49,394 nucleotides of DNA. It comes from Candidatus Woesearchaeota archaeon. Its GTDB lineage: Archaea; Nanobdellota; Nanobdellia; SCGC-AAA011-G17; GW2011-AR20. The DNA lies in assembly GCA_018302685.1 (NCBI GenBank), contig JAGVZK010000021.1:1-49394 (forward strand), read 5' to 3'. A program made the translations under genes and the position numbers. Below, piece by piece: positions 3,785 through 47,743 of this stretch; within the stretch, counting starts at the first letter, position 1, and every line of letters starts with the position of its first letter. A model generated the notes under the pieces. That model was not told where the DNA came from, ran no database searches, and saw only the letters and a list, made by a program, of their open reading frames with translations.

Positions 3785-3818
3785 TAAAAGTTATAAATTT
3801 TTAGTACTAAGCCATATT

Positions 3819-4211
3819 ATGAGAAATTTCACAAGGAATGCCGTTAGTTTTTTAATTGCAGGCTCCATTATTTCAACAGTAGCAATAAATACAGTCTACC
3901 GCAGCCCAAGAATAGAAGAAGCAGTGGAAGTTACGGCGGTCTATGACCGTCCCGGGGATAATTATACGGAGATAAAAGGAGAAGATAGCGAAGGAAACAC
4001 AATCAGATACTTCATTAGGAATGCACATCTATTTCCTGCAAAAGTAGGTGATTCTCTGTACGTTATGCAAATAAAAAAGAATGATTTATGGGAAATCATC
4101 TTGGGAGAAAACAAAGGGCATAACGACAAATTCAGAGTGAGAAACAAAAGAACCAATAATTATTTTGAATTAGATGGCCTTGAAATGTGGGTTGAATATC
4201 CTAATAATTGA
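3819..4211 (+). CDS. hypothetical membrane-anchored protein
   Basis: I place the start at the internal ATG 3819 (MRNFTRNAVSFLIAGSIISTVAINTV, an N-terminal TM helix). The track start at 3765 would overlap the upstream gene by 20 nt. Confidence 0.5.
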   Translation: MRNFTRNAVSFLIAGSIISTVAINTVYRSPRIEEAVEVTAVYDRPGDNYTEIKGEDSEGNTIRYFIRNAHLFPAKVGDSLYVMQIKKNDLWEIILGENKGHNDKFRVRNKRTNNYFELDGLEMWVEYPNN

Positions 4212-11309: not shown

Positions 11310-14750
<3,441 letters not shown>

Positions 14751-15012
14751 TTATTAAGTCCAAGCCTTTCATACCCTATTTTTTGTTAAAAATCTCCCCA
14801 AGATATACAATAAAAAATGCTGTTTAATATAAAAATCTTTCTCCCTCAAAACACAAAAATTTGAGCACTACAAGCCTTGTAATGGCAAAACAAAAGTTAT
14901 TTGACAGAAAGATTTATAAAGAAAATTTAGAAGTCCAAAAAACCAGAAAAGAAGGTTATTTCAACCTTAAATTAAGGCCTGAAAATCCCTGTTCTATGCC
15001 CTTTAAATTTTA

Positions 15013-15585
15013 TTAATTCTCTTCTATCACAAAATGTTTTTCACATCTTGCTTCATACTGCTCTTTTCCCCCAATGACAACCAGCTTATCATCATGATAG
15101 ACAGGCTTTCCATTAGCCAGCCTCTGCGTAAAATTAGCTTCTCTTCCGCAGATCTCGCCATTTTCCCTGTAAGTGCATATGGCAGACAAATAATAAACTT
15201 TGGACATAGCCATTAATTCCCCGACATGCCTCTCTGAATCTTTAAATTTAAATGGTTTGCCCATGAAATCAGTGTTCAATCCTGAAACAATTATCAGTTT
15301 GTTCCTGAATTTCCTGCAGAATCTAACTACCCCATCATCCAAAAACTGGACCTCGTCAATTCCTATAACATCGGCGTCATATCCGTAGAGATCGTCCGAA
15401 TTTTCAGCAGTGATGCATCTGAAGCTGACACCGTCGTGGGTCGTGACATATTCTTCGGAATATCGATTGTCGATTTTTGGCTTGAACAGGACGACTTTTT
15501 TTCCTGAAATGCTCTCCCTTCTCATTCTCCTTATCAGCTCTTCAGTTTTTCCGCAGAACATACATCCTGTGATGAATTCAATCAT
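15013..15585 (-). CDS. tdk: thymidine kinase
   Basis: 190 aa with the P-loop GCMFCGKTEEL, IGIDEVQF, and C-terminal Cys pairs (CTYRENGEICGR, ARCEKH). Confidence 0.9.
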   Translation of the reverse strand: MIEFITGCMFCGKTEELIRRMRRESISGKKVVLFKPKIDNRYSEEYVTTHDGVSFRCITAENSDDLYGYDADVIGIDEVQFLDDGVVRFCRKFRNKLIIVSGLNTDFMGKPFKFKDSERHVGELMAMSKVYYLSAICTYRENGEICGREANFTQRLANGKPVYHDDKLVVIGGKEQYEARCEKHFVIEEN

Positions 15586-15637
15586 AGATATTCAGGATGT
15601 GGGTTTATTTAAATTAATTATCAAAATAAAAAACAAC

Positions 15638-16564
15638 CTATGGAATAGTCCTATACTTTGTGTTTATCAATGTCCACTCAAATATGAGCAGGAATAAGGC
15701 AATTATTGTGAACCACAGGTCAAGCCTCTGTGTTATTTTTCTTTCCATTGAATTAGCAATTCTGCTGTATGCATCCTGCAACTGAACCTCGTCTTCCGCC
15801 CTGTAATATTCCCCAGAAGTGCTCAGCGCAATGTTCTTCAATGTGGTTTCATCCAGAACAAGCTGGGCTCCATAAAAGTCAGCTCCTTCTTCAGTTCCAA
15901 TTCCTATTGTATAGACAGTAACCTGCCTCAGGTTGATGTATTCTATCGCATCCGCAACAGGAAGCCCAACATTGCTCTGCCCGTCAGTAATAAGGATAAT
16001 CGCCTTTGCATTTTCGCTCCCCATCAGCAAATTCGCGCCGGTAACAAGAGCTTCCCCTATGTCTGTTCCGCCGGTGGAGCTTAGTTCAATGTTTCTTATC
16101 ACCTGGCCCACTTTAAATTTATCATCGGTCAATTCGGACTGCGAGTAGGCCGTGCTGGAGAATGCAACAATTCCCACCTTGTTATCCGGGCTTATCTGAT
16201 CAAGAAAATTTATTGCAGCCGTCTTGGCAGCTTGAAGCCTGCTCGGCGTGAAGTCATCAACAATCATGCTGTTGCTGTTGTCAATCACAATGACGAAATC
16301 ATAATTGCTTCCCAGGCCCTGATACGTAAATGAAACTCCGGAGATTGCAAGTATGAAAAGCAGCAGAATGCAGACTCTGGTGACAAGGAGAAAAAGGTTC
16401 TTGCTCAGCAGCTCTCCGCCAGTAATTCGCTCTATGGCTTCAAAATTGGCAAACTTGAACGCCCTTCTTTTTGTGCTTTTCAGCGTCGTGAAATGAATGA
16501 AGACAAGAATAGGCAGGCTGAACAAAAGCCATAGGTACTCTGGATTGACAAAATTTATCTCCAT
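15638..16564 (-). CDS. VWA-domain membrane protein (BatA-like)
   Basis: 308 aa with N-terminal TM helices, the VWA MIDAS motif VIVIDNSNSM, ITDGQSN, and a C-terminal TM helix. It follows DUF58 and MoxR. Confidence 0.85.
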   Translation of the reverse strand: MEINFVNPEYLWLLFSLPILVFIHFTTLKSTKRRAFKFANFEAIERITGGELLSKNLFLLVTRVCILLLFILAISGVSFTYQGLGSNYDFVIVIDNSNSMIVDDFTPSRLQAAKTAAINFLDQISPDNKVGIVAFSSTAYSQSELTDDKFKVGQVIRNIELSSTGGTDIGEALVTGANLLMGSENAKAIILITDGQSNVGLPVADAIEYINLRQVTVYTIGIGTEEGADFYGAQLVLDETTLKNIALSTSGEYYRAEDEVQLQDAYSRIANSMERKITQRLDLWFTIIALFLLIFEWTLINTKYRTIP

Positions 16565-17445
16565 CTCAGCGACCTCTCCATGAAAAGGTTCAATACTGGT
16601 TTTGTAAATCCCTTGTCAGTTGTCAGGCTAAGGAAATCAGCCCTGTTTCTCAGGAATGCATTCCTTATTTCATTTTCCTGCTTTTTCATCTCCGCCTCGT
16701 AGACCTCTCTTATTAATTCAGGCTCTATCAAAAGCGACCTTTTTGAATAGGGATCCTGGATGACAACCTGCCCTGCGTCTTCAGGGAGCACCTTGTCCCT
16801 CGGGTCTCTCACCATTATTGCTATGGTGTCAAACTTATGCGAAACTATCTCCAAAAATTTTACCCAGCCGTCTTTCAGGCCGACAAAATCAGAGACAATG
16901 ATGACGACAGAATCCTCCTTAAGAAAATTGAGGAGAAATTTTGCGGCATTGTTAAAGTCATAGGCTCCAAAGTAATAATCAGGGTTCAACAGGGCCTTTT
17001 CAAGGACATGAAACTGGCTTCTTCCCTTCGCAGGATAAATCTTGCTGACAATTTTGTCATTGAACATAGCCATTCCGACGCTATCTTCCGCCTCAAGGAT
17101 TGCATATGCAAGCGAGGCAACGAGTTCAACAGTGTACTCATTCTTTAATTTCACAGTGCTCCCAAAGACCATTGAATCGCTGCAGTCAATCAGAAAAAAA
17201 ACACTGACCTCCTTTTCTTCAACATACTGCCTTACAAGAATCTGGTTCGTTCTCAATGTGGCCTTCCAGTCAATCATTGATGCATCATCACCCGAACAAT
17301 ACGGCCTGTATTCAGAGAACTCGAGACCTCTCCCTTTGAAAACACTTCTGTAATTCCCGGAAACTTTTGTTTTGAGAAGGCCCTTGGTAACAATCTCAAG
17401 CCTTCTGATAGAAGGTACTATATCTACATTTAGCTTCCTTTTCAT
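16555..17445 (-). CDS. DUF58 family protein
   Basis: 296 aa. GRGLEFSEYRPYCSGDDASMIDWKATLR is the hallmark DUF58 motif. A VWA-like FLIDCSDSM follows. Confidence 0.85.
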   Translation of the reverse strand: MKRKLNVDIVPSIRRLEIVTKGLLKTKVSGNYRSVFKGRGLEFSEYRPYCSGDDASMIDWKATLRTNQILVRQYVEEKEVSVFFLIDCSDSMVFGSTVKLKNEYTVELVASLAYAILEAEDSVGMAMFNDKIVSKIYPAKGRSQFHVLEKALLNPDYYFGAYDFNNAAKFLLNFLKEDSVVIIVSDFVGLKDGWVKFLEIVSHKFDTIAIMVRDPRDKVLPEDAGQVVIQDPYSKRSLLIEPELIREVYEAEMKKQENEIRNAFLRNRADFLSLTTDKGFTKPVLNLFMERSLRWR

Positions 17446-18443
17446 GGCATCGGAACTTTTCTCAGAATTTCATTTATGACATCATCCCTGTCTATATTCT
17501 CCGCCTGTCCCTCATAATTGAGCAGTATCCTGTGCCTCAGAACATCATGGGCTATCGTCTTGACGTGATGGGGAGTTACATATGTCTGGCCTCTCAGCAG
17601 GGCCTCCGCCTTTGATGCAATGAACATACCAATGGATGCTCTTGGAGAGCTTCCCCATTCAATGTATTTTCCAAGACTTATCTTGTATTTCTGGGGATTC
17701 CTCGTGGCTTCAACTATTCTTATTATATACTTCTCAATATCCTTGCTCAGGAATATGTTCTTGACAAAGCTCTGCAAATCAAGTATTGACCTGGGATCCA
17801 TTACCTTGCTGAGTCTGTAATCATCAAAGTTCTTTAATGTTATATTTTTGCCGAGAATTTCCACTTCCTCATCTGTAGTTGGATACCTTATCTGAATTTT
17901 GAATAGGAACCTATCAATCTGAGCCTCCGGAAGATTGTAAACTCCTGCGCTTTCTATTGGATTCTGGGTTGCCATGACAAAAAACGGAGTAGGCAGCTTA
18001 TGGGTTGTCCTCCCTATCGTGACCTGCTTCTCTTGCATTGCCTCCAATAGAGCAGACTGCGATTTCGGAGGGCTTCTGTTGATCTCATCTGCAATTACAA
18101 AGTTGGAGAACACAGGCCCCTTAATGACCATAAATCCCTTATTTTTGTCATATGTTGTGAGGCCTGTTATATCTGTGGGAAGAAGATCAGCAGTGAACTG
18201 AATTCTCGAGTAATCAACACCCAAAATTTTGGCAAGCGTCCTTACTATCAGCGTTTTAGCTATCCCTGGGACTCCTTCAACAAGGATATGCCCGTCGCAT
18301 ATAACCCCTCTCAAAATTCCGTCAATGACTTCTTGCTGCCCGACGACAGTTTTCTTGGTTTCATTCCTTATCTTCAGAAACAGAGCATGATAATACTTTA
18401 TCTTATTCATGTCAGATTTGCTCAATCCGCCCCTTTCTTTCAT
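17442..18443 (-). CDS. MoxR-family AAA+ ATPase
   Basis: 333 aa with Walker A EGVPGIAKT, Walker B VIADEINRSPPKSQSALLEAMQE, and ATQNPIE. Confidence 0.92.
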   Translation of the reverse strand: MKERGGLSKSDMNKIKYYHALFLKIRNETKKTVVGQQEVIDGILRGVICDGHILVEGVPGIAKTLIVRTLAKILGVDYSRIQFTADLLPTDITGLTTYDKNKGFMVIKGPVFSNFVIADEINRSPPKSQSALLEAMQEKQVTIGRTTHKLPTPFFVMATQNPIESAGVYNLPEAQIDRFLFKIQIRYPTTDEEVEILGKNITLKNFDDYRLSKVMDPRSILDLQSFVKNIFLSKDIEKYIIRIVEATRNPQKYKISLGKYIEWGSSPRASIGMFIASKAEALLRGQTYVTPHHVKTIAHDVLRHRILLNYEGQAENIDRDDVINEILRKVPMP

Positions 18444-18464
18444 CTTGCACCTCTAATATATATT

Positions 18465-21400
18465 TTACAATGCATTTTTCTTTTTAAACCTTCTCCTTCT
18501 GTAATAGTAGTAGATCGAATAAAATACGAGCATGAATGCAATGATCTCAATTATCAGTATCGTTGTTTCGTTCAGTAATTCTTTCTTGGGCTCCTGCAAC
18601 GTCAGCCCCGCCCGGTTGACAAGATCTTTGCACGAATTTATTGCAGCCTCAGTTGTCTGTATTGCCTCCTCATAATTCCCCTCCTCGTAAATTTCAATGG
18701 CCCTGTCAATTAATTCCTTTAATTCAAGGCAGATTGGATTTGCCTCCAATAATGACTGTGCAAACTCTATCTTCTGCTTTGACTGAGCTGCAATTCCCCC
18801 TTCTGAAACAAGGTTAATGATGACCTTTGCCCGATCCTCGAAATTTGGCGTTGAAACTTCAGCAAGGACATTGACATCATACTGCCCCGGCTCAACATCA
18901 TCCCCTCTTGTTATTGTCAGGACAACAGGCATTGACTGCCCTCTTGCCAATGAGGGAATATAAGTTGAGCTAAAGACAAATCCCAACCCTTCTGTTCCCG
19001 AGTCAGCGCTCAGGCGGATTCCATACAAGTCTACCCCGCCTGTGTTTCTGAGTATGATCTGCGTCGTGACCTGCTTGTCTTCTGCTACCGTTATGACTCC
19101 TGGCTCTATTATATCCAAATCATAATCGGCCTTGCTTCCCCCTCCGCCTCCTCCGCCTCCTCCAGATCCTGATACAGCTACAGGAGACGTAGTTGCCTCT
19201 GAAACCATGAATACGCTCAGGTTCACCATTGATGCCCTGATATAATTATTATCTGTGCTCAACACGGAATCCAGCAATGTCCACGAGCATGATGCCTGAG
19301 AGTTACACTTGTAAAATTTTAAGTTCTCCTCATACGTTATTGTTCCAAGGACACTTGTGTAGTTGTATGTCATATTGACGCTCTGTGTGCTGCTGTTGGC
19401 TCCATAGGACAGCCCACTACAGCTGAAGTTATATTGGTCAATTGCCCTCGTATTTGTTGGGATTGCAATGCTCTCTGACAAATCCTGATATGCGCAGGCT
19501 TTTCCATGATCTGTGCTGAGGCTTACATTTTCTACCAAAATATTTAATTTGCTGTTTGTTAATTCCAAGTCAAAGTACCCAGAAGGATTTGTGAAGCTCA
19601 CGCTGCTGTTTGATTCAAAAACAGTCTTGCTGCTGCAGATGTCATTTATTGTAAAGTTTGTTATTCCCTCTCCTGTAAAAGTGATGTTCGTATTATTTGC
19701 AACTACCAGAGATGCATTTGAAGTGACGGTTATTCCAGTTTCAGGATAATTGATATCCCTGACCTGAACGCTAAGGGTATGGCTTCCCTCTGTTTTTGGG
19801 CTGTAGCTGAAATTATGTTCATACGTAAATCCCCCAGGTATAAAATCCTCCTCATTGTTGCTAACTGGAGTAAATTGATCAACGGTCCCGTTTGGAAGAT
19901 AGACATATACATCCACAGAATCTAAGAGCACAGACAGGTCAGTGTTGACTCTCACAGTGACATTGGCCTGTTCTATATTAGACACATACGTGTAATCCGG
20001 GCAGAAATAGCTTACTGTCGGATATGTAGCTGTAAGAGTGACAGGTACAGTAATTCTGAACCTTCCAGCTTCGCTCACGTTTGCGCTTGAGCCGATGCTG
20101 CCGTTCCATCCATATGCTGTGACCGTGACATACTGGGACTGGACTGACGGAACATCATAGCTGTAATTGTATGAAGTGTAGCTTCCCTGCGAGCTGTGAT
20201 TTGTGAAGTTAAGATAGCTTGTAAATGAGGATCCCTGAAGCGTAACGCTTATATTGTTGACCCAGTTCCCGTTTCCCATCTCAGTTATATTGAAGTTGTA
20301 TGAATTTCCGATTCTCAAGACCTGATCATAGGTCGGGGCCACAATCTGCAGAGTGGAATAAACAATGCTAAAGTTGCTGTAATTGTAGCTGTTGTAATCA
20401 ACGCTGTCATTTGCCCTTATCCTCAAATAATAGTCTCCAACAGGAGGCATGCTCTCAATCGGCAGAGTGTAATTTGTATAGCTTGTGTTGAATGCGAATA
20501 TCATATACGTTGAGTTGAATTTAGTTGAATTGTAAACTTCAAGCTCATAGCTCACATTGTCCAAATCCAGATCAGTTGAATCATCCCAGTCAAATTCCGT
20601 GTAGTTGTCATTGAGCATTTTGGCGTTAATGGCTGGGAATCTCCAAACAGGGGTCAGTGGAACCCTGTTCTGGACCTTGAATTCACCCCATGAGCTGCAG
20701 TTGGAGTTTCCATTGGTGTCATTGGCGCACCATCTGTAGATTACCGATTCCTGATTCGTGAAATTGTTCCATGTTATGTTGTATGAATACACATCTGTAT
20801 CTGAATTGATGTCAAATGAATTAGATGAATTAGTGTAATTCTGGTAGCTACCCGACCAGTTTCCCTCAACCCATATTTCATGGAGGAACAAGTCAGTGAC
20901 GGTTGCATTCAATGTTACATTGCTCGTCGGATAGCTCGGCTCAGGCGTCTTGTTCACATTAACTATCAATGGAGGGCTTAGGTCAACGCTGAAAATTCTC
21001 GTCTCCGAAATATTGACATTGCTTGAATTGTCATAGACTGATATATTCCACATTGTATTCTGCTGGTCAAAGAACCCTGTGAGGTTCATGTAGGTTATTG
21101 AGTCAAGGCTATTGATTGCAATCGTCGTGCTTGAATTCAGGGTTCCATTTATTGTTATAGTTATGTTCCCTATGCTGTGAAGATCAGACACATTGAATGT
21201 GAAATTGATGCTGCTTGCTCCTACAACAGAATTGTTTACAGGGTAATTAATCAACACTGAAGGCTTGATAGTGTCCCTTACAGTCAGGTTTTCATAAGTT
21301 GTGTTCTCCCTTCCGCTGAAATCAATCGCATATGCCTTCATCGTGTAATTTCCTGTTTTTGTCAGATTTGTTGTAAACAAAGTTACATTGTTCGATGCAT

Positions 21401-22589
21401 TGTTCAGGTGAGTTCCGTCAGGATATGAGATGTTTATGACTGAATAATTCAGCGAAACATCAACTATTGTAAAGTTGACAGTTGAGTTTTCGACCCCAAA
21501 CTCTATTGGAGTCGGGAAAACAGTCAGGTTGATCTTTGGATTTTGGGTGTCAACTCCAAAAGTCCTGTTGCCTGCCAGCGTGTTGTTGTTTCCTGCAGAA
21601 TCGACGCATATTACATTCCAGTCATACCTTCCATCAGATATTCTTGATGCCGACAGGGTGTTCTGTGTCCCTGAAGTCGGAGTCAAATCCGTGGTGTTGT
21701 ATCTCCATATTCCGTCAGTCCAGTTGCCATACAAGATGCAATAATCAAGATTGACATCAGTTGGTGTGTAGATGAAATCAGCGCTCTGGTCCTGGCTCCA
21801 GTATCCATTTGCCGGGCTGTTTAACGTGACTGTCGGGCTTATTGTGTCAACAGTATATGTAAGCGCTTCTGAAGTGTTGCAATAATTAAGCTGATCACAG
21901 TAATAGACTCTCCAATAGTAGGCCGTGTCTGCTCCCAGCTGCTCCGCTCCCAAAACCTGATACTGTATAACCCCCTCCTGTGTCGTGAATGACCTGTCAA
22001 AGCTTGTAAATGCAACATCATTGTCAACCTGGACAGTGTAGTTGTCCAGTCCTGAGTAGTCCTCAGCCCCATTCCATTGGAACAGCGGCGTCCTGTTTGT
22101 TGATACCGTCTGGTTCAAGGGGGATATTAAGCTTGCATTGAAAGGATACCCTGTTTCAACATAGAAATCGGAGTCATACTCAAATGTATTGTTCAAAGTG
22201 TCGTTTACATATAAGGTGTAATTAATTTGCCCCGTTCCATAAGTTGCATTCAGGGCAGGGATTGTTATTTCCCACAATCCTCCTCCTATCTCAACCAGCC
22301 ATCCCCAGAACAGCACTGCAGCATTCTTTATTGAGTCCCAGATGTAAATCCATGCGCTTGATATCTGGCCTATTCCTGAATCTGTGAGATTGAACCTTAA
22401 TGTCAAATTTTCACCATATGTCACGGGGCTTGTATTGTTGACTATCACCTGCCCAGTCGTCCTATTTGCAGTTATGTTCTGAACGGCCACATCAGGATAT
22501 AGTGTATCAACCTGAAAATTCAGCTCACTGCTCCAGTCAGAAAGGGCATTTTCATAAACATCATCATTTGATGTGGAATTGTCAGACAT
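18465..22589 (-). CDS. giant surface-type protein (about 1374 aa) with C-terminal TM anchor
   Basis: ATG at 22589. The track start at 22595 is a TTG two codons upstream. The sequence is dense in N-x-S/T sequons and has a Gly9 linker (SGSGGGGGGGGGSK) and a CARDB-like beta domain. It ends with a helical segment, a TM helix and RRRRFKKKN. No N-terminal signal peptide. Confidence 0.85.
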   Translation of the reverse strand: MSDNSTSNDDVYENALSDWSSELNFQVDTLYPDVAVQNITANRTTGQVIVNNTSPVTYGENLTLRFNLTDSGIGQISSAWIYIWDSIKNAAVLFWGWLVEIGGGLWEITIPALNATYGTGQINYTLYVNDTLNNTFEYDSDFYVETGYPFNASLISPLNQTVSTNRTPLFQWNGAEDYSGLDNYTVQVDNDVAFTSFDRSFTTQEGVIQYQVLGAEQLGADTAYYWRVYYCDQLNYCNTSEALTYTVDTISPTVTLNSPANGYWSQDQSADFIYTPTDVNLDYCILYGNWTDGIWRYNTTDLTPTSGTQNTLSASRISDGRYDWNVICVDSAGNNNTLAGNRTFGVDTQNPKINLTVFPTPIEFGVENSTVNFTIVDVSLNYSVINISYPDGTHLNNASNNVTLFTTNLTKTGNYTMKAYAIDFSGRENTTYENLTVRDTIKPSVLINYPVNNSVVGASSINFTFNVSDLHSIGNITITINGTLNSSTTIAINSLDSITYMNLTGFFDQQNTMWNISVYDNSSNVNISETRIFSVDLSPPLIVNVNKTPEPSYPTSNVTLNATVTDLFLHEIWVEGNWSGSYQNYTNSSNSFDINSDTDVYSYNITWNNFTNQESVIYRWCANDTNGNSNCSSWGEFKVQNRVPLTPVWRFPAINAKMLNDNYTEFDWDDSTDLDLDNVSYELEVYNSTKFNSTYMIFAFNTSYTNYTLPIESMPPVGDYYLRIRANDSVDYNSYNYSNFSIVYSTLQIVAPTYDQVLRIGNSYNFNITEMGNGNWVNNISVTLQGSSFTSYLNFTNHSSQGSYTSYNYSYDVPSVQSQYVTVTAYGWNGSIGSSANVSEAGRFRITVPVTLTATYPTVSYFCPDYTYVSNIEQANVTVRVNTDLSVLLDSVDVYVYLPNGTVDQFTPVSNNEEDFIPGGFTYEHNFSYSPKTEGSHTLSVQVRDINYPETGITVTSNASLVVANNTNITFTGEGITNFTINDICSSKTVFESNSSVSFTNPSGYFDLELTNSKLNILVENVSLSTDHGKACAYQDLSESIAIPTNTRAIDQYNFSCSGLSYGANSSTQSVNMTYNYTSVLGTITYEENLKFYKCNSQASCSWTLLDSVLSTDNNYIRASMVNLSVFMVSEATTSPVAVSGSGGGGGGGGGSKADYDLDIIEPGVITVAEDKQVTTQIILRNTGGVDLYGIRLSADSGTEGLGFVFSSTYIPSLARGQSMPVVLTITRGDDVEPGQYDVNVLAEVSTPNFEDRAKVIINLVSEGGIAAQSKQKIEFAQSLLEANPICLELKELIDRAIEIYEEGNYEEAIQTTEAAINSCKDLVNRAGLTLQEPKKELLNETTILIIEIIAFMLVFYSIYYYYRRRRFKKKNAL

Positions 22590-22591
22590 TC

Positions 22592-23374
22592 TCAATTTCC
22601 ATGTGTAATTCCCCCATCATCAAAGGCGAACCTCTGGAGCTCGTACAAGCTTGCAATTTCAGAGCCTGATAATGACCTGTTGAATATTGCCACTTCATCT
22701 ATATCTAATATTGCCCCATTTGCATTCCCTAGCGCAAAACCATAGCCTTCAATGGAAGCACTTGAGCCAACAATAAAGGTGTTTACTTTGGTATAATTAA
22801 AATAATATGTAATGTTAACCCCATCATATGTTATAGCCATAAAATCCCAAAGAGTAGGACGACTGGAAGGTCCAAAGTTACTGGGGAATTGAGCTGTAGA
22901 AATCCCTCCAGAACTATTGTAAAGAGAAAAATAAGGAATCTGCCCAGATGCACCTTCGAAATTAGTCTTGATCAAACCAGTAAAAGGAGTTCCATTGTAA
23001 AATATCCAATAATAATTCAGAATTGAACTTGTCCACTTCTCAGTCTTAACCCATTGGCTTATCGTAAACTCTGTTGGGTAGGTCCCTATCAAAGAATCAA
23101 TATTTGGAAAAATAATATAATCAGATGAGCTATCAAATTGAGTAGCAACCCTGTCTATCATATGAGAATCAGTGAAGTTTCCATTGGCTTCAGTGTAAGC
23201 TCCAACAATAAGTTCCCCCCCTCCTTGATATATTGTTGCTACATGTGAAGTATTCACTTTATTTATCAAATCACTTCCATCCCACAAAAGCTTCAAACCT
23301 TCAGGATAATAGGCGGTGCTTGGGGAATTTCCAAATATAGAACTTGTATTGTACAACGTTGAATTCAAAATCAA
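22592..23374 (-). CDS. LamG/concanavalin-like lectin-domain protein, C-terminal part of a gene split by a 77-bp duplication
   Basis: 260 aa. DEVAIFNRSLSGSEIASLYE is the terminal motif of Laminin_G_3-type domains. The N-terminal 25 aa duplicate the C-terminus of the upstream ORF. Confidence 0.8.
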   Translation of the reverse strand: MILNSTLYNTSSIFGNSPSTAYYPEGLKLLWDGSDLINKVNTSHVATIYQGGGELIVGAYTEANGNFTDSHMIDRVATQFDSSSDYIIFPNIDSLIGTYPTEFTISQWVKTEKWTSSILNYYWIFYNGTPFTGLIKTNFEGASGQIPYFSLYNSSGGISTAQFPSNFGPSSRPTLWDFMAITYDGVNITYYFNYTKVNTFIVGSSASIEGYGFALGNANGAILDIDEVAIFNRSLSGSEIASLYELQRFAFDDGGITHGN

Positions 23375-23453
23375 ACTTCAGGATAATAGGCGGTGCTTGG
23401 GGAATTTCCAAATATAGAACTTGTATTGTACAACGTTGAATTCAAAATCAAAC
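23300..23453. repeat. exact tandem duplication, 2 x 77 bp
   Basis: 23300-23376 and 23377-23453 are identical base for base (checked by hand). 77 is not a multiple of 3, so the repeat breaks the reading frame of the LamG gene. Confidence 0.95.
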
Positions 23454-24660
23454 TTCCGGAATTATTATAAATATTCAGCACAGGATGCAGTATATCTCCA
23501 TCCAAGTCGCTTTGGTTGGTCCAGTTCATTCTGGTGTGATTGCTGCCTGTCCAAGTCACATTTGTCGGATATGTCAAACTGAAGTTCGCAAAGGGCTGGG
23601 TATTCAGGATTTTAACTTGATAATCCTCCTGCTTAAGAACTACATCCATAAGCACTGGAGTCAAATTTGTATTCAGGGTTTCAAATAAAGCCATGTATTG
23701 AAGATACCTGTAAGATTCTGTTAAATTCTGGATTGAATTTGAGCTTCCATTCGGGATATAATAACTTGACCATGCACTCCAATTTATTTCATTATCTGCT
23801 GCCAATCTGCTTATTCCTGATATATTTGAGGCATTCCAGGAATTTCCAACTCTTGTCTGCAGTTTGAGATTTCCCTCAATGCTTCTGTTATAAATTTCAT
23901 AAACTTCAGTTGATGTTAAAGCCCTGTCCCATATTGCAACTTCATCCAGAGCCCCTACACTATAATCAGGTCCTGTGTACTGATATGCCCCAAGGACAAA
24001 ATTATCCCTGTTATTTATATCCCCCAGCCAGCTCCCATCATTAGAACCTAATGACATAGTAAATGATTGATTTATTCCGTCTATATACAATAGATACTGT
24101 GCACCATCAGAGCCAAAAACAAAATTATGCCATTCATTATCACTATACTGCCCATCAGAACCTACTACAACCTGCCTCCATCCTGCTATTCCATTATTCC
24201 AATAAAAATTAAATTTCCCATTATTAATCCCCAAGAGCAATAGATATATATTATTTCCTGTGTCAGTATCCCCAAAAGTAACATGATACTCGGACCCACT
24301 TCCTACACTTGATTTAAACCAATATGATATCATTCCAGCTTGGTCACCGCTTCTATAATTGGATGAATTATAAACTAAATACTGGCTTCCATTGAACCAT
24401 GTTGCACTTGTATCAATCACATGAATCCCTGTTCCGTTCATATTTATTGTTCCTGCCTGAACGCCCCCAACACTCGCAAATTGGATGGAATTATTTAAGT
24501 AACTTACATTGTTAGAGCCATCCCATCCAAATACCAACCCTGAAGGATAATAGCTTAGATGAGGAATATCATACCCAAAGCCTATCTCGGAGGCATTTGG
24601 ATTAACCCCCAAGTCAAATATCATTGAAGTAAAATTCCCTTTTGAAAAGTATCCATTCAC
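23371..24660 (-). CDS. LamG/concanavalin-like lectin-domain protein, N-terminal part of the split gene
   Basis: 429 aa with a GTG start overlapping the upstream stop (GTGA). LDEVAIWDRALTSTEVYEIYN is the LamG terminal motif. No signal peptide. Confidence 0.8.
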   Translation of the reverse strand: MNGYFSKGNFTSMIFDLGVNPNASEIGFGYDIPHLSYYPSGLVFGWDGSNNVSYLNNSIQFASVGGVQAGTINMNGTGIHVIDTSATWFNGSQYLVYNSSNYRSGDQAGMISYWFKSSVGSGSEYHVTFGDTDTGNNIYLLLLGINNGKFNFYWNNGIAGWRQVVVGSDGQYSDNEWHNFVFGSDGAQYLLYIDGINQSFTMSLGSNDGSWLGDINNRDNFVLGAYQYTGPDYSVGALDEVAIWDRALTSTEVYEIYNRSIEGNLKLQTRVGNSWNASNISGISRLAADNEINWSAWSSYYIPNGSSNSIQNLTESYRYLQYMALFETLNTNLTPVLMDVVLKQEDYQVKILNTQPFANFSLTYPTNVTWTGSNHTRMNWTNQSDLDGDILHPVLNIYNNSGSLILNSTLYNTSSIFGNSPSTAYYPEV

Positions 24661-26324
24661 CTAAAGTCCCCAATAGTTGTATCTATGACATACCTGTTCG
24701 TTGAATTGTCCCCATTTATCTGGCAGTAAATCCTGTCCCCCTTCACGAAATTGCCAGATGATAGAGAGCTTGTATTGCTTCCCAAAGCAGCATCATTCTT
24801 GAACCATTCATAGCTTAAAACAGAAAGGGTTGTATTTGCATAATTGCAGTAGAGAGTGTCATTCACTCTCGCAACAGCGAACTTCTTGTAATCCAAAGTT
24901 GAAGCAGTGTCCATCCACACGGCACTTTGATTGAATTCTGGATTTGTGGTTGAGACAAATTCCAGATTGTTATAAACAGTCCCTAAGTAAACTCCATAAT
25001 TCCTCTCAGAGAAATGGTCAACTATCCATTCAACAACAAAAATGCTTACATTGTTTTCACCAAGCGAGTAATAGGAATCATAAACCCCGATGCTGGCATT
25101 GTTGTCCATATCAGAAATAGACACTGGTTCCCCCTCATAGCCATAGAGAGCAGTGTAGCCAATTACATTCTCATAATATATATCAGAGCCAAATCTGACG
25201 ATCCTTCCATTCTGGATTCCATAGTCCTCAATCGTCCTTGGGCCTTCAGTCTGGTATTCAATTTCAACTTCATTTACACTGTCCTCAATAACAAGGCTTA
25301 CATTCTCAGTAAGATTTGATTCTCCCCCAAAGACAGCAAAGCCGGTGATTCCCCCAAGCCAGTCAAATACAGAATTCCCTGTAATCAAATTTCCGCTGCC
25401 AAGATCTTTTACACTACCATCTTCAACAACCTTGACCCTGTCATTGATCTCAATTTCAGAGCCGCCTTCAATTTTGGTCACGGTAACATTGCTTGCCAAT
25501 TTTGGTATCTCGATTGTAAGATTATCCGAGCTCTGCTCCAGCCTGACAACTTTTTTCCACCTTACAGGCTGGTTTATCCTTATCGGCTCAACAAGCGTTG
25601 TATTCTCTTCGATTCCACTTGGTAATGTAACATTTTCCTGTAGTGTAACATTCTCTATCGTCTCATTCACAGCCTCAACTATGTAGTCGCTTATGTTTAT
25701 TTCAATTGGATTATCAATGCTCTCATTGATTTCAATCGTGTAGTTGCTTGCGTTTAATTCAGGAACGTCTTCCATAGAATCTTCAACAACAAGCGTATCG
25801 CCTACAATCCCTACAATTCCACCATTGTCAATCAGGCTGAGTGTAACAGAATATTCTCCAGGATCCAGCTCAAGCCCAAAATCAGAAGCCCCCGCGTTTA
25901 GCGTGTCTATATAGTATCCATCTTCATCGGCTTCAAGCCCGAACTCTGATATGCTTCTCGAATATTCATCAAGATCAACAAGTAAAATGACGGATGCATT
26001 TGAAGACACATGCTCATTGATTTCAAGGTTGATGCCATCATTCTCAAACACAACAAAGCCAGTAATTCCATAGTTGAAGTAGAAAAAAAGCCCTCCTAAG
26101 AAGAGTATTCCTATTACCAAGAGAGGAATTGCACCACTTATCTTAGGATGCTGAACAACATAATCAGAAGAAGAATAATTTGAATTTCTGAGAGCCTTTT
26201 CTTTCCTGACGGCTTCTCTCTTATCGGAGCTTAAAAAGATATTTTTTACATTGCCATCTTTCCTGTAGTTGGTATACCAGTAGTCATATGACCTGCCATT
26301 CCTCACCACTGTCTTCCTATACAA
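24657..26324 (-). CDS. signal-anchored surface protein with basic cytoplasmic N-terminal module
   Basis: 555 aa. A TTG start at 26324 is preceded by AGGTGA (6-nt spacer), and an in-frame TGA lies three codons upstream. TM helix AIPLLVIGILFLGGLFFYF. The ectodomain is acidic and rich in N-x-S/T. Confidence 0.75.
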   Translation of the reverse strand: MYRKTVVRNGRSYDYWYTNYRKDGNVKNIFLSSDKREAVRKEKALRNSNYSSSDYVVQHPKISGAIPLLVIGILFLGGLFFYFNYGITGFVVFENDGINLEINEHVSSNASVILLVDLDEYSRSISEFGLEADEDGYYIDTLNAGASDFGLELDPGEYSVTLSLIDNGGIVGIVGDTLVVEDSMEDVPELNASNYTIEINESIDNPIEINISDYIVEAVNETIENVTLQENVTLPSGIEENTTLVEPIRINQPVRWKKVVRLEQSSDNLTIEIPKLASNVTVTKIEGGSEIEINDRVKVVEDGSVKDLGSGNLITGNSVFDWLGGITGFAVFGGESNLTENVSLVIEDSVNEVEIEYQTEGPRTIEDYGIQNGRIVRFGSDIYYENVIGYTALYGYEGEPVSISDMDNNASIGVYDSYYSLGENNVSIFVVEWIVDHFSERNYGVYLGTVYNNLEFVSTTNPEFNQSAVWMDTASTLDYKKFAVARVNDTLYCNYANTTLSVLSYEWFKNDAALGSNTSSLSSGNFVKGDRIYCQINGDNSTNRYVIDTTIGDFR

Positions 26325-26419
26325 AGGGCATCACCTTTCCAATAGAGAAACAGCTAGAAGAAACACTCCCTAACCGCTTAAAAGCATATGCTACAATAAC
26401 CATCAACCTCTTTTTTTAC

Positions 26420-26462
26420 AGTGGTGCAAATCCAGAAATAAGTGGTGCAACCCTAATATAAA
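26420..26462 (-). promoter_or_regulatory. candidate promoter/operator: TATA-like TTTATATT plus a 10-bp direct repeat
   Basis: On the minus strand, TTTATATT (26455-26462) is followed by TTGCACCACT twice (26441-26450 and 26420-26429), 21 bp apart. The region lies upstream of the 26324 operon. Confidence 0.35.
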
Positions 26463-26510: not shown

Positions 26511-26954
26511 TCAATGATTCACTTCGCTTATTGACTCGTAAATTTCCTTTGTTTTGTTGTAAAGCTCAGCTCTTTGAACATCAGTCACCTGCTCTGACAA
26601 GTTGCCATAGAGCTCCAAAAGCTTGTTGTAGTGGTTTGCAGCAGCCTCAACTTTGTTTTCAATGACAAGAAGCCTTGTTTCCTCAGCAAGCTTGTTGAAG
26701 TCAATAACATTATCAATAACCCACCGGTCAGATCTGTGAATTATCTTAGCCTTCAGACGCGATGCATGAGCTGCGGAATGATGTTTTACTTTTCTAAGCA
26801 GGATTTTCTTTGTTTCCTTTTTTGATTTATGTTTCCCGCCTTCAACAATTTCTTTTCCAAGATATATGCTCTTCACCTTTCCATTGACTCTCTTGCTTTC
26901 ATACTTGTACCTGTAAATCTGCCCGCCTTTCTTTATTTCCCTTATGAAAGCCAT
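26511..26954 (-). CDS. hypothetical protein sharing an N-terminal module with the 555-aa protein
   Basis: 147 aa. FIREIKKGGQIYRYKYESKRVNGKVKSIYLG aligns with YRKTVVRNGRSYDYWYTNYRKDGNVKNIFLS of the 24657-26324 product. The C-terminus is helical. Confidence 0.6.
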   Translation of the reverse strand: MAFIREIKKGGQIYRYKYESKRVNGKVKSIYLGKEIVEGGKHKSKKETKKILLRKVKHHSAAHASRLKAKIIHRSDRWVIDNVIDFNKLAEETRLLVIENKVEAAANHYNKLLELYGNLSEQVTDVQRAELYNKTKEIYESISEVNH

Positions 26955-28068: not shown

Positions 28069-30561
28069 ATGCTTAAGAGGAGTTTGTTGTTGGTTATTTT
28101 TCTTGCATTTTCCAATAGGGTTTCCGCTGTAGCGCTCTTCGGCCAGGACTATTCTTTGACATTGATTGTCCCTGTGCTTATGATCCTATTTGCACTACTT
28201 TTCTTTCTTGGGATATACCTTAAAGACAACTGGAAAAGATTCAAGCTGCCAGTTCACAGAAAACACAGGAAGCATGAAGTTAAAGTGGAGACTGATTTCA
28301 GCAGTGAGTTTTCAAATCTGAAGAAATCTCTCAAGAAGCAGTCTGATGGGCAGGCATTGGATTCAATAGAAGACCTGACCAAAAAGTTTCTTGGCGAAAA
28401 ATTAAAAATAATAGGTGAGTTCTCATTTGAAGAGCTTCCAAAAGAAAGGCTCTCTCTGTCAACCAGAAGCTTCATAGAAAAAATATCTGAACTGAAATAC
28501 AGCGGTGAGGCAGTGACAAGGCAGAAGATAGCCAATCTCCTCTTTCAGCTGTCAGGGCTCCTAAGAGTCAGATTCGCCGGTGATGAAGCCCCCCACAAAA
28601 AGAGATTCAGATTCAGGATTCCAAAGATCTCATTGAATTTATTTCCAAAGAAAAAATACGCCCCCAAAAGCCTCAAGGTTCCAAGACCTAACAAGTTGAA
28701 TCTGTCCCCTCCAAAACCATCAAGCAATCTTGGCGCGGTGGAAAGATTGAACCGGAGGCTTATGGGGCTGATGCGGAAGATTGAGCTGAGCCTATCCAGA
28801 CCAAAGAAGGCTTTGAAGCTCTATCAGAAGGCCGTTGAACTCAACAGAGTAATTCCAAGGTCAGGTTTGACCAGTAAGCTGAAAGAGTTAAACAGCAGGA
28901 TATTAACCTACAAGGAAAAAGAAGACAAGACAAAGCTGAAGAAAGCCAGATCAAAAAAGAATAAGAATTTAGAGAAGACATCGCAGGCAATCCAGCAGCT
29001 GGTAAAGCAGACAGAAGCAAATATAATAGATTACAGGAAGGCATTAAAGCTGCATGAAAAGGCTGTGAAGCTCAACAAGACAGTTCCTCATCACGAATTT
29101 TCAGGCAAGTTGTCCGCTCTGTACCAGAGCATAGTAAGAACAAAGGAAAGACAGAACGAAATTAAGCTAAGGAATATAGACCTGCAGAATCAGAAAAAAA
29201 TAAAGCAGGTGAGGGATTCAAAAACAAGTGAAGTAAGAAGAGTAATGAAAATAGCTGAGAATAACATTTCAAATGTAAGCAAAGCCCTGAAGATTCATTC
29301 AAAAGCACTGAAATTAAATCAAGGAATACCAAATTCCCACCTTCAAAAAGAGCTGAAGGACCTCCATGATAAAATACTCTGTGAAAGGCAGAAACAGATA
29401 AGAGACGCAAAAAAAAGGGAACTTGAAAAGATAAACGGGGAAATATCAGAGCTAATTCAAATGTCTGAAAGCAGTATAAAGAATACAAAAAAGGCCTTGA
29501 AATTCTATGAAAGAGCACTTGGAATCTACACATCCCTTCCTGAAAGGCAGGGATTCACAGCAAGATTAAAGGAGCTTCATGAAAAGATTCTTGAAAACAA
29601 GATAAGGCCGATAGCCTCTCCTCTGGAAAATAAAAAGATTGAACTTCCAGAGAAGGAATATCAGGCCAAGAAGAAGCACTCTTCCGCAAATCCAAATAAA
29701 ATAATAAGGCTGTTGAAAAAGGCAGAAAGAATGTCATCCAGAAACCCTCTTCTCTCAAAAAAGTTCCACGACAGGGCTCTCTTCATGTATTATGAGCTGC
29801 CTATTCAGGATGAAAAACAGATAACTTCCAGGCTGTCTGGATTCTATGAAAAAATTCAGGGTCCAAAGCATCTTGTGGAATACAAGAAGAATGACCTTCA
29901 CAAGACAAGAGAAGCATTGAAGGAATACCAGAAATACAAGAATTATGTCATTCTTGAAGAATCCAAGGACAGGAATGAAATTTCGAGGCATCTCCAAGAC
30001 ATTAAAAAGCATGCTCTGGCTCACCTCTCAAAGGAAAAAAATCCCTCTATGAAGAGATCAATAAACAGCCTGTTGAGAAATATAAACAAGAAGCATGAAA
30101 AAATAATCAATCTTGACACGAGAGAGATTGAAAATCTCCATAAGAGTTCCCAGAACCTTCTGAACGAAATATCCTCGAAATCAAGAAGAGTATCATCTCC
30201 TGTTTCAGAAGATGAGCATAGCATAAATGATTCAGCAAAAAGCCTGTTCGAAAAGCTTGGGATAAAGCATCACTCTCCTCACATCCCAAGGCAGATTACA
30301 GATATCCCAAAGCCAAGGACTCCTGAGCCAATATCAACTTCAGGTGAAGCCGCAGGAGAGCCGGAAGTCTTTGGTGAGGAGTTGATTAAGCCGAAGATAA
30401 TCCTAAAAGCTGCAAAGATTCACATAAGGCCCCCGGAACTGCATGAAAGAAAAATACCTGAATCAATCAAAAGATTGCAGAAGGAGAAAGAGATGCTTAA
30501 TGAAAAACTAAGGTCTTTAGAATATCAGGATGATATATTGGGAAAAATAAGGAATCAATAA
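28069..30561 (+). CDS. membrane-anchored, Lys-rich protein with five or six internal repeats
   Basis: 830 aa with a signal-like segment and a TM helix at the N-terminus. The repeated module K-A-L-K-[LIF]-[YH]-x-[KR]-A-[VL]-x-[LI]-[NY]-x3-P ... L-x-x-L-[HNY]-x-[KRS]-I-[LV] starts at about 28807, 29038, 29281, 29491, 29752 and possibly 29908. Confidence 0.75.
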   Translation: MLKRSLLLVIFLAFSNRVSAVALFGQDYSLTLIVPVLMILFALLFFLGIYLKDNWKRFKLPVHRKHRKHEVKVETDFSSEFSNLKKSLKKQSDGQALDSIEDLTKKFLGEKLKIIGEFSFEELPKERLSLSTRSFIEKISELKYSGEAVTRQKIANLLFQLSGLLRVRFAGDEAPHKKRFRFRIPKISLNLFPKKKYAPKSLKVPRPNKLNLSPPKPSSNLGAVERLNRRLMGLMRKIELSLSRPKKALKLYQKAVELNRVIPRSGLTSKLKELNSRILTYKEKEDKTKLKKARSKKNKNLEKTSQAIQQLVKQTEANIIDYRKALKLHEKAVKLNKTVPHHEFSGKLSALYQSIVRTKERQNEIKLRNIDLQNQKKIKQVRDSKTSEVRRVMKIAENNISNVSKALKIHSKALKLNQGIPNSHLQKELKDLHDKILCERQKQIRDAKKRELEKINGEISELIQMSESSIKNTKKALKFYERALGIYTSLPERQGFTARLKELHEKILENKIRPIASPLENKKIELPEKEYQAKKKHSSANPNKIIRLLKKAERMSSRNPLLSKKFHDRALFMYYELPIQDEKQITSRLSGFYEKIQGPKHLVEYKKNDLHKTREALKEYQKYKNYVILEESKDRNEISRHLQDIKKHALAHLSKEKNPSMKRSINSLLRNINKKHEKIINLDTREIENLHKSSQNLLNEISSKSRRVSSPVSEDEHSINDSAKSLFEKLGIKHHSPHIPRQITDIPKPRTPEPISTSGEAAGEPEVFGEELIKPKIILKAAKIHIRPPELHERKIPESIKRLQKEKEMLNEKLRSLEYQDDILGKIRNQ

Positions 30562-40825: not shown

Positions 40826-40927
40826 GAGCTTGTAGCTTAGCCTGGCTAGAGCACTGGTCTTATATGACCGCCTTTGGTACAAATCTAAGAGAACCAGAGG
40901 TCCGGGGTTCAAATCCCCGCAAGCTCA
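40826..40927 (+). tRNA. tRNA-Ile (anticodon UAU) with a 27-nt canonical-position intron (40865-40891)
   Basis: Acceptor GAGCTTG/CAAGCTC, D stem GCTT/GAGC, anticodon stem CTGGT/ACCAG. Loop C-T-TAT-A | intron | A. Helix CTTA/TAAG is flanked by 3-nt bulges (BHB-like). T arm CGGGG-TTCAAAT-CCCCG. Confidence 0.8.
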
Positions 40928-47599: not shown

Positions 47600-47743
47600 T
47601 CCCCACTGCCGGAGTTGAACCAGCAACCTCTCCCGGATAATAGTTTATCTTTCGGTGACGGCTGAATATTTTTCATTCTTAGCATTATAGCCACGTCAAA
47701 CATCCTCTACAGCCGAATGCTCTACCAATTGAGCTAAGTGGGG
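47600..47743 (-). tRNA. tRNA-Tyr (anticodon GUA) with a 50-nt intron (47657-47706) and a second ~21-nt insertion (about 47630-47650)
   Basis: Minus-strand fold: acceptor CCCCACT/AGTGGGG (C1:G72, A73, the archaeal Tyr identity set), D arm GCTC-AATTGGTA-GAGC, anticodon stem TTCGG/CCGAA with loop CTGTAG|intron|A, T arm GCTGG-TTCAACT-CCGGC. Subtracting a 73-nt mature tRNA from 144 nt leaves 71 nt of insertions. Confidence 0.8.

Follow-up and report, generated by a model that had tools for sequence, protein, structure and literature searches.

A MoxR-DUF58-VWA triad of DPANN archaea is recurrently encoded beside giant surface proteins that share an undescribed C-terminal module

To our knowledge, MoxR-DUF58-VWA ("Bat") modules are among the most widespread uncharacterized ATPase systems of bacteria and archaea, and their clients are essentially unknown. 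A stretch of archaeal DNA of 49,394 nucleotides (GCA_018302685.1, contig JAGVZK010000021.1, forward-strand positions 1-49,394; here called the window) raises the question of what such a triad might serve. It carries seven tightly packed minus-strand open reading frames (ORFs; 24657-26324, 23371-24660, 22592-23374, 18465-22595, 17442-18443, 16555-17445, and 15638-16564), which an earlier reading of the DNA, the original prediction, took for an operon that translationally couples moxR, duf58, and a von Willebrand factor A (VWA) gene to a multiprotein, lectin-like surface structure. The locus consists instead of four genes: a surface-protein gene of ~2,620 amino acids (aa), followed by moxR, duf58, and a batA-type VWA gene. 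The constant, triad-linked element is the C-terminal module of the surface protein, while LamG is variable cargo. A real functional partnership between the triad and the proteins that bear this module is probable.

A giant gene in fragments and an intact triad

The features that make up the locus are as follows.

24657-26324, minus strand: fragment 1 of the giant gene, with a TTG start, a basic beta-hairpin-like N-terminal motif (MYRKTVVRNGRSYDYWYTNYRKDGNVKNIFL), a transmembrane (TM) anchor at residues ~63-90, and a sequon-rich ectodomain
23371-24660, minus strand: fragment 2, with LamG_a (Laminin_G_3 at residues 92-253, E = 2.7e-16) and the start of an FN3-like domain
22592-23374, minus strand: fragment 3, with LamG_b (Laminin_G_3 at residues 81-241, E = 1.2e-11)
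19167-22589, minus strand: fragment 4, variable ectodomain, with Ig/FN3-like repeats and 81 N-x-S/T sequons; it lacks a separate N-terminal signal peptide
18465-19166, minus strand: C-terminal anchor module, with a Gly-rich linker, an Ig-like sandwich, a three-helix bundle, a TM helix, and an RRRRFKKK tail; 1 sequon
17442-18443, minus strand: MoxR AAA+ ATPase (AAA_3, PF07726, E = 4.7e-60; AAA_lid_2, PF17863, E = 1.2e-17)
16555-17445, minus strand: DUF58 protein (DUF58, E = 1.7e-46), VWA-like (motif DCSDS), starting within moxR with an overlap of 4 nucleotides (nt)
15638-16564, minus strand: BatA-type VWA membrane protein (VWA, PF00092, E = 9e-22; BatA_N, PF07584, E = 6.9e-10); 0 sequons

The domain calls made for these products from the letters alone agree with Pfam, which matched AAA_3/AAA_lid_2, DUF58, VWA with BatA_N, and Laminin_G_3; CARDB, which had also been proposed, gave no match at E < 0.01 in the same scan. 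The contrast in sequon content was likewise read correctly, with 3.5 to 6.0 N-x-S/T sequons per 100 aa in the upstream ORFs versus 0 to 0.9 in MoxR, DUF58, and the VWA protein. MoxR contains the Walker motifs GVPGIAKT and FVIADEINR, and its closest solved structure is 2R44 (E = 2.5e-95). It is predicted to be a cytoplasmic protein without a TM segment, of the MRP ("MoxR proper") kind. The gene order typical of that kind, moxR with DUF58 directly downstream and then a VWA-TM gene, is present here and is common to 34 to 42 related loci. The DUF58 protein is also predicted to be cytoplasmic and to lack TM segments.

The VWA protein has two N-terminal TM helices (BatA_N), a VWA domain, and a C-terminal TM helix. 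Its metal ion-dependent adhesion site (MIDAS) is intact, as had been noted: the D-x-S-x-S, T, and D elements are present and are invariant in 25 orthologs. The best NCBIfam match is VWA_BatA_Lepto (E = 2.1e-29), which falls under the equivalog cutoff of that model. Positive-inside statistics over 33 orthologs gave an acidic N-tail (0.5 K+R versus 1.2 D+E), a basic TM1-TM2 loop (6.9 K+R versus 1.8 D+E in 29 aa), and a basic C-tail, and the VWA domain is therefore predicted to face outward. This agrees with Borrelia BB0173, whose VWA domain was found experimentally to be exposed to the periplasm (PMC5700661). The window has no second VWA gene (BatB); a thymidine kinase gene directly follows the terminator-like T-run after the VWA gene. 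Among the window proteins scanned, Pfam gave neither a BatE SH3 domain nor a PF13584 (BatD) match. The source had been called DPANN-like, and this is reasonable because the nearest MoxR relatives in a species-level genome collection, 54 to 67% identical, belong to metagenome-assembled genomes of Nanoarchaeota, Woesearchaeota, and Pacearchaeota and because two tRNAs in the window suggest introns.

All seven ORFs are real, and the five junctions listed for them are exact to the base: a GTGA overlap at 24657-24660, TGA-2 nt-ATG at 22587-22594, a 21-nt gap at 18444-18464, and overlaps of 4 nt at 17442-17445 and 10 nt at 16555-16564. A sixth junction, a TTGA overlap at 23371-23374, had been omitted. 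The four upstream ORFs, however, are one gene. The N-terminal membrane anchor is found in the first of them only and the C-terminal anchor in the last only, and the LamG ORFs and the ~1374-aa protein lack the signal peptide that their homologs at other loci possess. A search with the concatenated products recovered a single protein of 2601 aa (P0001) that is colinear with all four ORFs in alignments that cross the junctions; fragment 1 corresponds to its residues 1-367 and 431-885.

At least 23 contigs of the same population were recovered by an exact-sequence look-up of the window MoxR, and six of them (L153 to L158) were compared with the window. Synteny is identical, and nucleotide identity is 99.3 to 99.97% over the blocks that align within the 13 kb compared, with the exception of a divergent LamG segment. 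In two of the contigs (L154 and L156), fragment 1 runs into the next ORF and the giant gene is uninterrupted; it is called as 2616 aa, has 2624 open codons, and stops 21 nt before moxR, the same spacing as in the window. Three frame breaks are private to the window and occur in none of the six other contigs.

24660/24661, minus strand: lesion 1, loss of 88 nt that are present in the six other assemblies; the missing stretch encodes SNGTFSSNGTAFEINWTRQPGNLTLNNISD
23296-23372 and 23373-23449, no strand assigned: lesion 2, a 77-nt tandem duplication whose copies are 76/77 identical; single-copy in L153 to L158
22611-22616, minus strand: lesion 3, GATGGGGG in the window versus GACGGG in the six other assemblies

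Lesion 1 shifts the frame and generates the GTGA overlap. Lesion 2 produces the TTGA overlap, shifts the frame, and separates LamG_a from LamG_b; when one copy is removed, the two LamG ORFs fuse into a 663-aa frame. As 77 is a common assembler k-mer size (SPAdes k=77), the duplication may be an overlap artifact of assembly. Its self-match at offset 77 extends over 81 nt, that is, 77 plus 4 nt of microhomology, which is no less compatible with slippage or with an error in gap closure. Lesion 3 is a C-to-T change with 2 extra G that shifts the frame, and upstream of the point where the last fragment nominally starts, the sequence is still homologous to relatives (DGNYSWKAKL). An alternative account of lesion 3 as the loss of 1 nt from a G6 run was ruled out by the same-population contigs. 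An apparent 199-nt duplication in L153 and L155 was likewise discarded, since the stretch is a run of N. These scaffold gaps lie within the giant gene (L153, ~3810-3909; L155, ~3807-3906), ~100 nt from lesion 1, indicating that the region is hard to assemble. A frameshift in the giant gene was also seen in a related contig (L146, MoxR 75% identical), at a different place (~1071-1086; query residue ~850).

None of the other same-population assemblies compared has the lesions, which must therefore be errors of assembly or gap closure or else mark a strain-specific pseudogene, i.e., an inactivated allele. What had appeared to be several lectin-like surface proteins is a single gene that is fragmented in this assembly. 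Most of the apparent translational coupling is an artifact of this fragmentation, because a frameshift that hits a TGA codon yields an NTGA start/stop overlap almost automatically. Nor is coupling a conserved trait, as the gap in relatives ranges from -4 nt to >5 kb and often contains an opposite-strand gene. The seven-ORF "operon" is thus one fragmented gene plus a triad, an error that annotation pipelines would propagate. The intact protein reads, in order, as a basic N-terminal motif, a TM helix, an ectodomain of ~2,300 residues, a Gly-rich linker, and a C-terminal module of ~230 aa. The ectodomain is rich in sequons and contains the two LamG domains and many Ig/FN3-like repeats. The basic N-terminal motif (MYRKTVVRNGRSYDYWYTNYRKDGNVK...) is probably cytoplasmic.

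The C-terminal module and its linkage to the triad

An AlphaFold2 model of the C-terminal module, built from a 47-sequence alignment, has a mean predicted local distance difference test score of 93. In this model, an Ig-like sandwich (residues 17-119) is followed by three helices (122-142, 144-161, and 165-185) and a TM helix (200-232). Conservation is seen at F135, N143-P144-x-C146, E148, E151, A156, and C179, and a disulfide between C146 and C179 is plausible. The window module conforms to a family defined by F-x7-N-P-x-C-x-E-L-x-E-L...A-I-x-x-C followed by a TM helix and a basic tail at the extreme C-terminus. An exhaustive phmmer search of 1.84 billion 50%-identity cluster representatives returned 765 relatives, of which 582 have E <= 1e-10. 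In proteins of 200 to 6446 aa, the module nearly always forms the very C-terminal end, and those named by NCBI are called "hypothetical protein [Nanoarchaeota archaeon]". The exhaustive search was needed: a word-indexed homolog search returned no proteins with the module alone and four with an alignment of eight module sequences.

No Pfam or NCBIfam model covers the module. A Foldseek search against the Protein Data Bank matched its generic Ig-like part and returned nothing for the module as a whole. The Ig domain was also compared with the DUF11-like domain of BatD and gave no Pfam match even at E <= 10, apart from a sub-threshold match to NPCBM_assoc/NEW3. As a family without an existing model, the module merits a domain definition. 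Glycosylation sites are nearly absent from both the module and the VWA domain, which would be expected to touch each other at the membrane surface: sequon density is 7.1 per 100 aa in the ectodomain and 0.89 in the module (50 family members), with 0.56 in the VWA orthologs.

The linkage between module and triad was assessed from both sides. A scan seeded with MoxR collected 80 loci (L001 to L080), of which the eight closest are DPANN triads and the other 72 are mostly of the bacterial Bat type. A module gene lies directly upstream of four of the eight (L002, L006, L007, and L008), and the module was not found in the other 72 loci. For the reverse direction, the full alignment of eight module sequences (A1) contained no stretch conserved enough for a contig scan, and metagenome contigs were scanned with a trimmed alignment of the helical motif from five sequences (A2), which yielded 64 motif-seeded loci. 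MoxR is present in 36 of these. Where at least 3 kb of downstream flank was available, the triad lies within 10 kb of the module gene in 28 of 37 loci (76%), compared with a chance expectation of ~2% of genes within 10 kb of a single triad in a genome of ~1 Mb. In ~22 nonredundant loci, moxR directly follows the module gene, in the same orientation and at a gap of -4 to 200 nt.

Eight module proteins were also looked up by exact sequence (P0001, P0007, P0035, P0032, P0026, P0163, P0013, and P0062). In every case, moxR and duf58 lie no more than 6 kb downstream, followed, as long as the contig continues, by the gene for a BatA-type VWA protein; in two of these loci, the contig stops before the third gene does. 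Apart from the triad, the genomic contexts vary, with ribosomal genes and genes of NAD biosynthesis among the neighbors. All-against-all clustering of the neighbors found that only surface proteins, MoxR (42 loci), DUF58 (36), and VWA (34) recur. The linkage persists across MoxR identities of 54 to 78%. The part of the original prediction that tied the triad to a giant, glycoprotein-like, membrane-anchored surface protein therefore describes a recurrent arrangement in DPANN archaea.

The arrangement is not fixed. The triad is upstream of the module gene in three loci (L095, L101, and L111), convergent with it in two (L091 and L097), and divergent in one (L104), and elsewhere HEPN/nucleotidyltransferase toxin-antitoxin pairs or an opposite-strand gene separate the two. 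The neighborhood therefore survives rearrangement and is not always one operon. Some loci (L002, L118, and L135) contain two or more module genes. It was also observed that HEPN/MNT-type toxin-antitoxin pairs have been inserted repeatedly, in different relatives, exactly between the giant gene and moxR.

L081, 14816-17137: HEPN/MNT insert
L100, 1809-2926: HEPN/MNT insert
L133, 600-1720: HEPN/MNT insert
L151, 11959-13076: HEPN/MNT insert
L123, 10338-11122: HEPN/MNT insert

LamG, which had been proposed as the element linked to the triad, gave tblastn matches in only 5 of the 64 motif-seeded loci and is therefore cargo. Both LamG ORFs of the window belong to Laminin_G_3 by Pfam, and carbohydrate binding is a prediction from that membership. 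Compared with L081, L123, and L130, LamG_b is inserted into an FN3-like domain. The core of LamG_a (~23874-24515) exists as two alleles in one population that are ~52% identical in nucleotides and ~25% in amino acids, with flanks at least 99% identical on both sides; the window shares one allele with L155 and L157, and L153, L154, L156, and L158 have the other. LamG_a thus has the appearance of a lectin-domain cassette that has been swapped and is under diversifying or balancing selection, and such a swap would fit a role in recognition or adhesion. An origin of the alleles through a diversity-generating retroelement was considered and dropped, as the substitutions are not adenine specific and the alleles are only ~52% identical. 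An extra LamG gene directly follows the VWA gene in two relatives (L146, 5510-6607, 365 aa; L081, 20784-22187, 467 aa), at the position occupied in the window by the thymidine kinase gene.

At the other end of the giant proteins, a shared basic motif of ~35 aa, M-x-[YF]-[KR]-K-x-[IV]-x-[KR]-x-G-x-x-Y-x-Y-x-Y-x-x-x-R-x-x-G-K-V-K-x-[IR]-[FY]-[LI], precedes the TM anchor in several cases (the window, P0001, and ORFs in L008, L094, L123, L130, and L145). It has no match in Pfam or NCBIfam and, by eye, resembles a beta-hairpin or an Arm-type DNA-binding motif.

Accessory genes and transcription signals

A helical domain of ~90 aa was first seen in small proteins encoded between the module gene and moxR (L004, L006, L007, L098, and L120). 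It is homologous to the cytoplasmic C-terminal region that follows the TM segment in bacterial BatD proteins bearing PF13584 (L013, L018, and L042), and we refer to it as BatD-C-like. Relatives of this domain are encoded beside the triad in ~32 DPANN loci and in L147, L148, L150, and L152. One module protein, P0163 (2351 aa; L150, 8001-15056), has in residues ~648-815 an internal TM-like segment followed by a BatD-C-like domain, in addition to the C-terminal module. P0163 may have arisen by fusion of two adjacent genes, or it may pass through the membrane more than two times. Two genes upstream of the giant gene may bear on the system.

26511-26954, minus strand: 147-aa soluble protein that starts with the basic beta-hairpin motif of the giant protein
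28069-30561, plus strand: divergent 830-aa protein with a signal-like segment, a TM helix, and a BatD-C-like domain at residues 84-162 (hidden Markov model E = 3.7e-7)

The gene for the 147-aa protein adjoins the giant gene in close relatives only, and its membership in the system is uncertain. In the 830-aa protein, the BatD-C-like domain is followed by ~600 residues of very basic helical repeats with the unit "KALK[LF]Y.KA..LN..[IL]P", for which Pfam gave only weak TPR/Sel1 matches. An ortholog has the same divergent position in L123, and the gene is a probable accessory gene of the system.

TATA-like and Shine-Dalgarno-like motifs were read by eye; a sigma-70 scan was not applied because the organism is archaeal.

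26455-26462, minus strand: TATA-like TTTATATT upstream of the giant gene, a putative promoter element by sequence
26441-26450 and 26420-26429, minus strand: direct repeats TTGCACCACT, two exact copies directly downstream of the TATA-like box, 21 nt from start to start
26331-26340, minus strand: Shine-Dalgarno-like GGAAAGGTGA ahead of the giant gene, a putative assignment
18444-18464, minus strand: 21-nt spacer before moxR, with a strong Shine-Dalgarno-like AGAGGTG (18448-18454) and A/T-rich AATATATATT (18455-18464)
15623-15634, minus strand: oligo-T GTTTTTTATTTT directly after the VWA stop codon
15606-15613, minus strand: TATA-like TTTAAATA, ~20 nt before the thymidine kinase ATG

The TTGCACCACT repeats could be the operator of a repressor. 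The spacer before moxR contains no oligo-T run, and its A/T-rich part is not a typical archaeal promoter because it is too close to the moxR ATG. The transcription unit probably ends after the VWA gene, because an oligo-T run is followed there by a TATA-like box ahead of the thymidine kinase gene.

Further along the window, the gyrB gene (11310-14732, minus strand) contains an intein with a LAGLIDADG homing-endonuclease domain (Intein_splicing, E = 1.8e-19) that is kept in all same-population contigs. Rfam tRNA matches at 40826-40927 (plus strand) and 47600-47743 (minus strand) span 102 and 144 nt versus a model of 71 positions, and ARAGORN missed both; from their length, both are probably intron-containing archaeal tRNAs.

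A possible anchoring machine and its alternatives

The triad belongs to the MoxR-proper/Bat kind, and its cluster is close to the Bat operon (MoxR-DUF58-BatA-BatB-BatC-BatD-BatE) of Bacteroides, Leptospira, and Borrelia. The first three genes are the same, in the same order and with tight overlaps; BatA has the architecture of the DPANN VWA protein, in which an outward VWA/MIDAS domain stands between two N-terminal TM helices and one at the C-terminus; and a homolog of the cytoplasmic BatD tail is encoded near the DPANN triad. Unlike the Bat operon, the DPANN cluster contains no BatB, BatD DUF11-like ectodomain, or BatE that we could find, its TPR-like repeats are confined to the divergent 830-aa protein, and its triad is coupled to a giant surface protein with a novel C-terminal module.

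The original prediction knew of no description of such a linkage, and close precedents do exist. In Mycobacterium tuberculosis, the gene order ripA-ripB-moxR1-Rv1480(DUF58)-Rv1481(VWA-TM) likewise places a secreted envelope protein upstream of MoxR-DUF58-VWA. RipA is an experimentally supported client of MoxR1 and depends on the ATPase as its chaperone (PMC4810496). It differs in being a small peptidoglycan hydrolase exported by twin-arginine translocation, bacterial, and without a conserved C-terminal anchor module. In the bifidobacterial PFNA cluster, pkb2-fn3-moxR(aaa-atp)-duf58-tgm, the gene for a large secreted FN3/Ig-type glycoprotein is also immediately upstream of moxR-duf58, and the authors suggest that MoxR chaperones the FN3 protein (PMC8430577). 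That cluster differs in its third partner, a transglutaminase-like membrane protein, in its link to a Ser/Thr kinase, in its bacterial origin, and in the family of its surface protein (PMC8430577). A predicted archaeal secretion system combines arCOG01314/DUF4350 and COG0714 MoxR with a secreted vWA protein and Ig-like/S-layer proteins and was read by its authors as a machine for surface assembly or secretion (Makarova, Galperin, and Koonin 2015, PMC5898192). Unlike that system (PMC5898192), the DPANN cluster has a vWA protein of the BatA type rather than an Ig-vWA fusion, a DUF58 protein, and a different C-terminal module, and it occurs in DPANN lineages. No DUF4350 match was found in the cluster proteins by Pfam or in the precomputed Pfam lists of L081 and L146 to L152.

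The notion that a secreted client is encoded beside MoxR-DUF58 therefore has three precedents. The exact DPANN linkage did not turn up in the limited literature collection searched, which yielded no link of MoxR or DUF58 with DPANN lineages. What appears to be new here is a DPANN variant whose partner is defined by an undescribed C-terminal module and which has a separate BatD-C-like domain.

We propose that the triad forms a reduced, Bat-like machine that spans the membrane and is dedicated to proteins with the module at their C-terminus. On the outside, the sequon-free VWA domain would hold the sequon-poor, membrane-proximal module through its invariant MIDAS, for which the acidic residues E148 and E151 in helix 2 of the bundle are candidate ligands. 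On the inside, a MoxR hexamer and the VWA-like DUF58 adaptor would dock on the basic TM1-TM2 loop, on BatD-C-like proteins, or on both, and would supply ATP-driven remodeling. Very large adhesin- or S-layer-like proteins would in this way be folded, assembled, or stably anchored, and possibly also released under regulation. One triad may serve several substrates, because some loci hold more than one module gene. The logic would resemble that of C-terminal sorting domains and their cognate machinery, such as PGF-CTERM/archaeosortase, LPXTG/sortase, and the C-terminal domain of the type IX secretion system. In those pairs too, a conserved C-terminal domain is found on variable surface proteins, with several genes per locus and the machinery beside some of them. 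Unlike those pairs, the DPANN cluster has no sortase, exosortase, or protease, and the module is a folded domain of ~230 aa rather than a short tripartite signal.

We give this reading of the triad as a Bat-like assembly or anchoring machine a probability of about 0.5. The more specific proposal, an ATP-powered sorting or anchoring machine that recognizes a folded C-terminal domain on giant, hypervariable DPANN surface proteins, is tentative, and the contact between the VWA MIDAS and the module, a candidate suggested by composition and conservation, is doubtful.

Several observations weigh against the proposal. Among the eight closest DPANN triads, four (L001, L003, L004, and L005) have no module or giant gene beside them; triads without a giant neighbor in close relatives are what the original prediction had named as evidence against the linkage, and they make up half of this set, with the other four having the neighbor. 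Nine of the 37 module genes with enough flank have no nearby triad, and because of redundancy (L008 = L125 = L126; L110 ≈ L124 ≈ L132; L095 ≈ L101 ≈ L111), the loci represent ~20 independent lineages. Bacterial Bat triads work without any such partner. In the window itself, the client gene is broken next to an intact triad, which, should the lesions be real, would not depend on that gene. The mechanism is drawn entirely from gene neighborhood, predicted topology, and composition: low sequon density near the membrane could reflect poor access of the oligosaccharyltransferase, and the conservation of E148 and E151 may be structural.

The triads that lack a module gene, and the intact triad beside a broken giant gene, would be expected if the triad were a general Bat-type system for envelope or oxidative stress that is found near surface genes through co-regulation or co-inheritance and has no client relation to them. 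Publications on the Bat operons of Bacteroides, Leptospira, Borrelia, and Riemerella (PMC5700661 among them) also connect these operons with stress or aerotolerance phenotypes and not with adhesins. We nevertheless consider this explanation unlikely, as the link holds across the whole range of MoxR identities and through inversions and insertions, the three triad genes are the only recurrent neighbors of module genes, and the share of module genes near a triad is far above the ~2% expected by chance. A control of adhesion or signaling similar to that of integrins, in which a ligand signal is relayed through the VWA protein to MoxR/DUF58 or MoxR switches the affinity or conformation of the adhesin, is somewhat less likely again. 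It would make use of the outward-facing VWA/MIDAS domain, the basic cytoplasmic loop and the recurring cytoplasmic BatD-C-like domain, the conserved N-terminal motif of the giant protein on the cytoplasmic side, and a LamG core that is swapped between alleles as a recognition surface might be. The clustering of neighbors, however, found no recurrent kinase, transcription factor, or other output domain, and characterized MoxR-VWA systems are reported to be maturation chaperones rather than transducers (PMC9976466, PMC13036017, and PMC3893208).

Two further explanations concern what the cluster in the window is. The giant gene could be a dead pseudogene and the "operon" a relic in which nothing is coupled in this genome; the three frame-disrupting lesions are confined to this gene, with no further indel relative to L153, L155, and L157 across 15000-23383 (8.4 kb), and the giant gene of L146 is frameshifted too, in a different place. 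Yet each fragment stays open for 260 to 1376 codons without further stops, the N-gaps of two scaffolds mark a difficult region close to lesion 1, and the gene is intact in L154 and L156, so that we regard this as improbable; even if true, it would apply to one strain and leave the family-wide linkage unaffected. A MoxR-vWA "ternary" conflict or defense system of the VMAP type is very improbable. Such systems are known (PMC7159879 and PMC10907252), and the window MoxR has a weak Pfam match to bpMoxR (E = 1.3e-13), but its match to AAA_3 is far stronger, DUF58 with BatA_N is a signature of the MRP/Bat kind, Pfam found no VMAP, peptidase, TIR, or other effector domain, and none of the seven proteins tested matched a PADLOC model.

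The surface proteins that end in the module are the first plausible dedicated partners of this class of ATPases, and if the proposed reading is true, they would be the first client class for Bat-type MoxR systems. Since the module can be recognized by sequence, the question of what a Bat-type MoxR acts on becomes a direct experiment in binding and genetics. Among the surface proteins of DPANN archaea, these partners are the largest and the most variable, with lectin-like domains as would be expected of proteins that attach ultra-small symbionts to a host or to particles. If the proposed reading holds, the apparatus that mounts the probable host-attachment proteins of DPANN episymbionts would have been identified.

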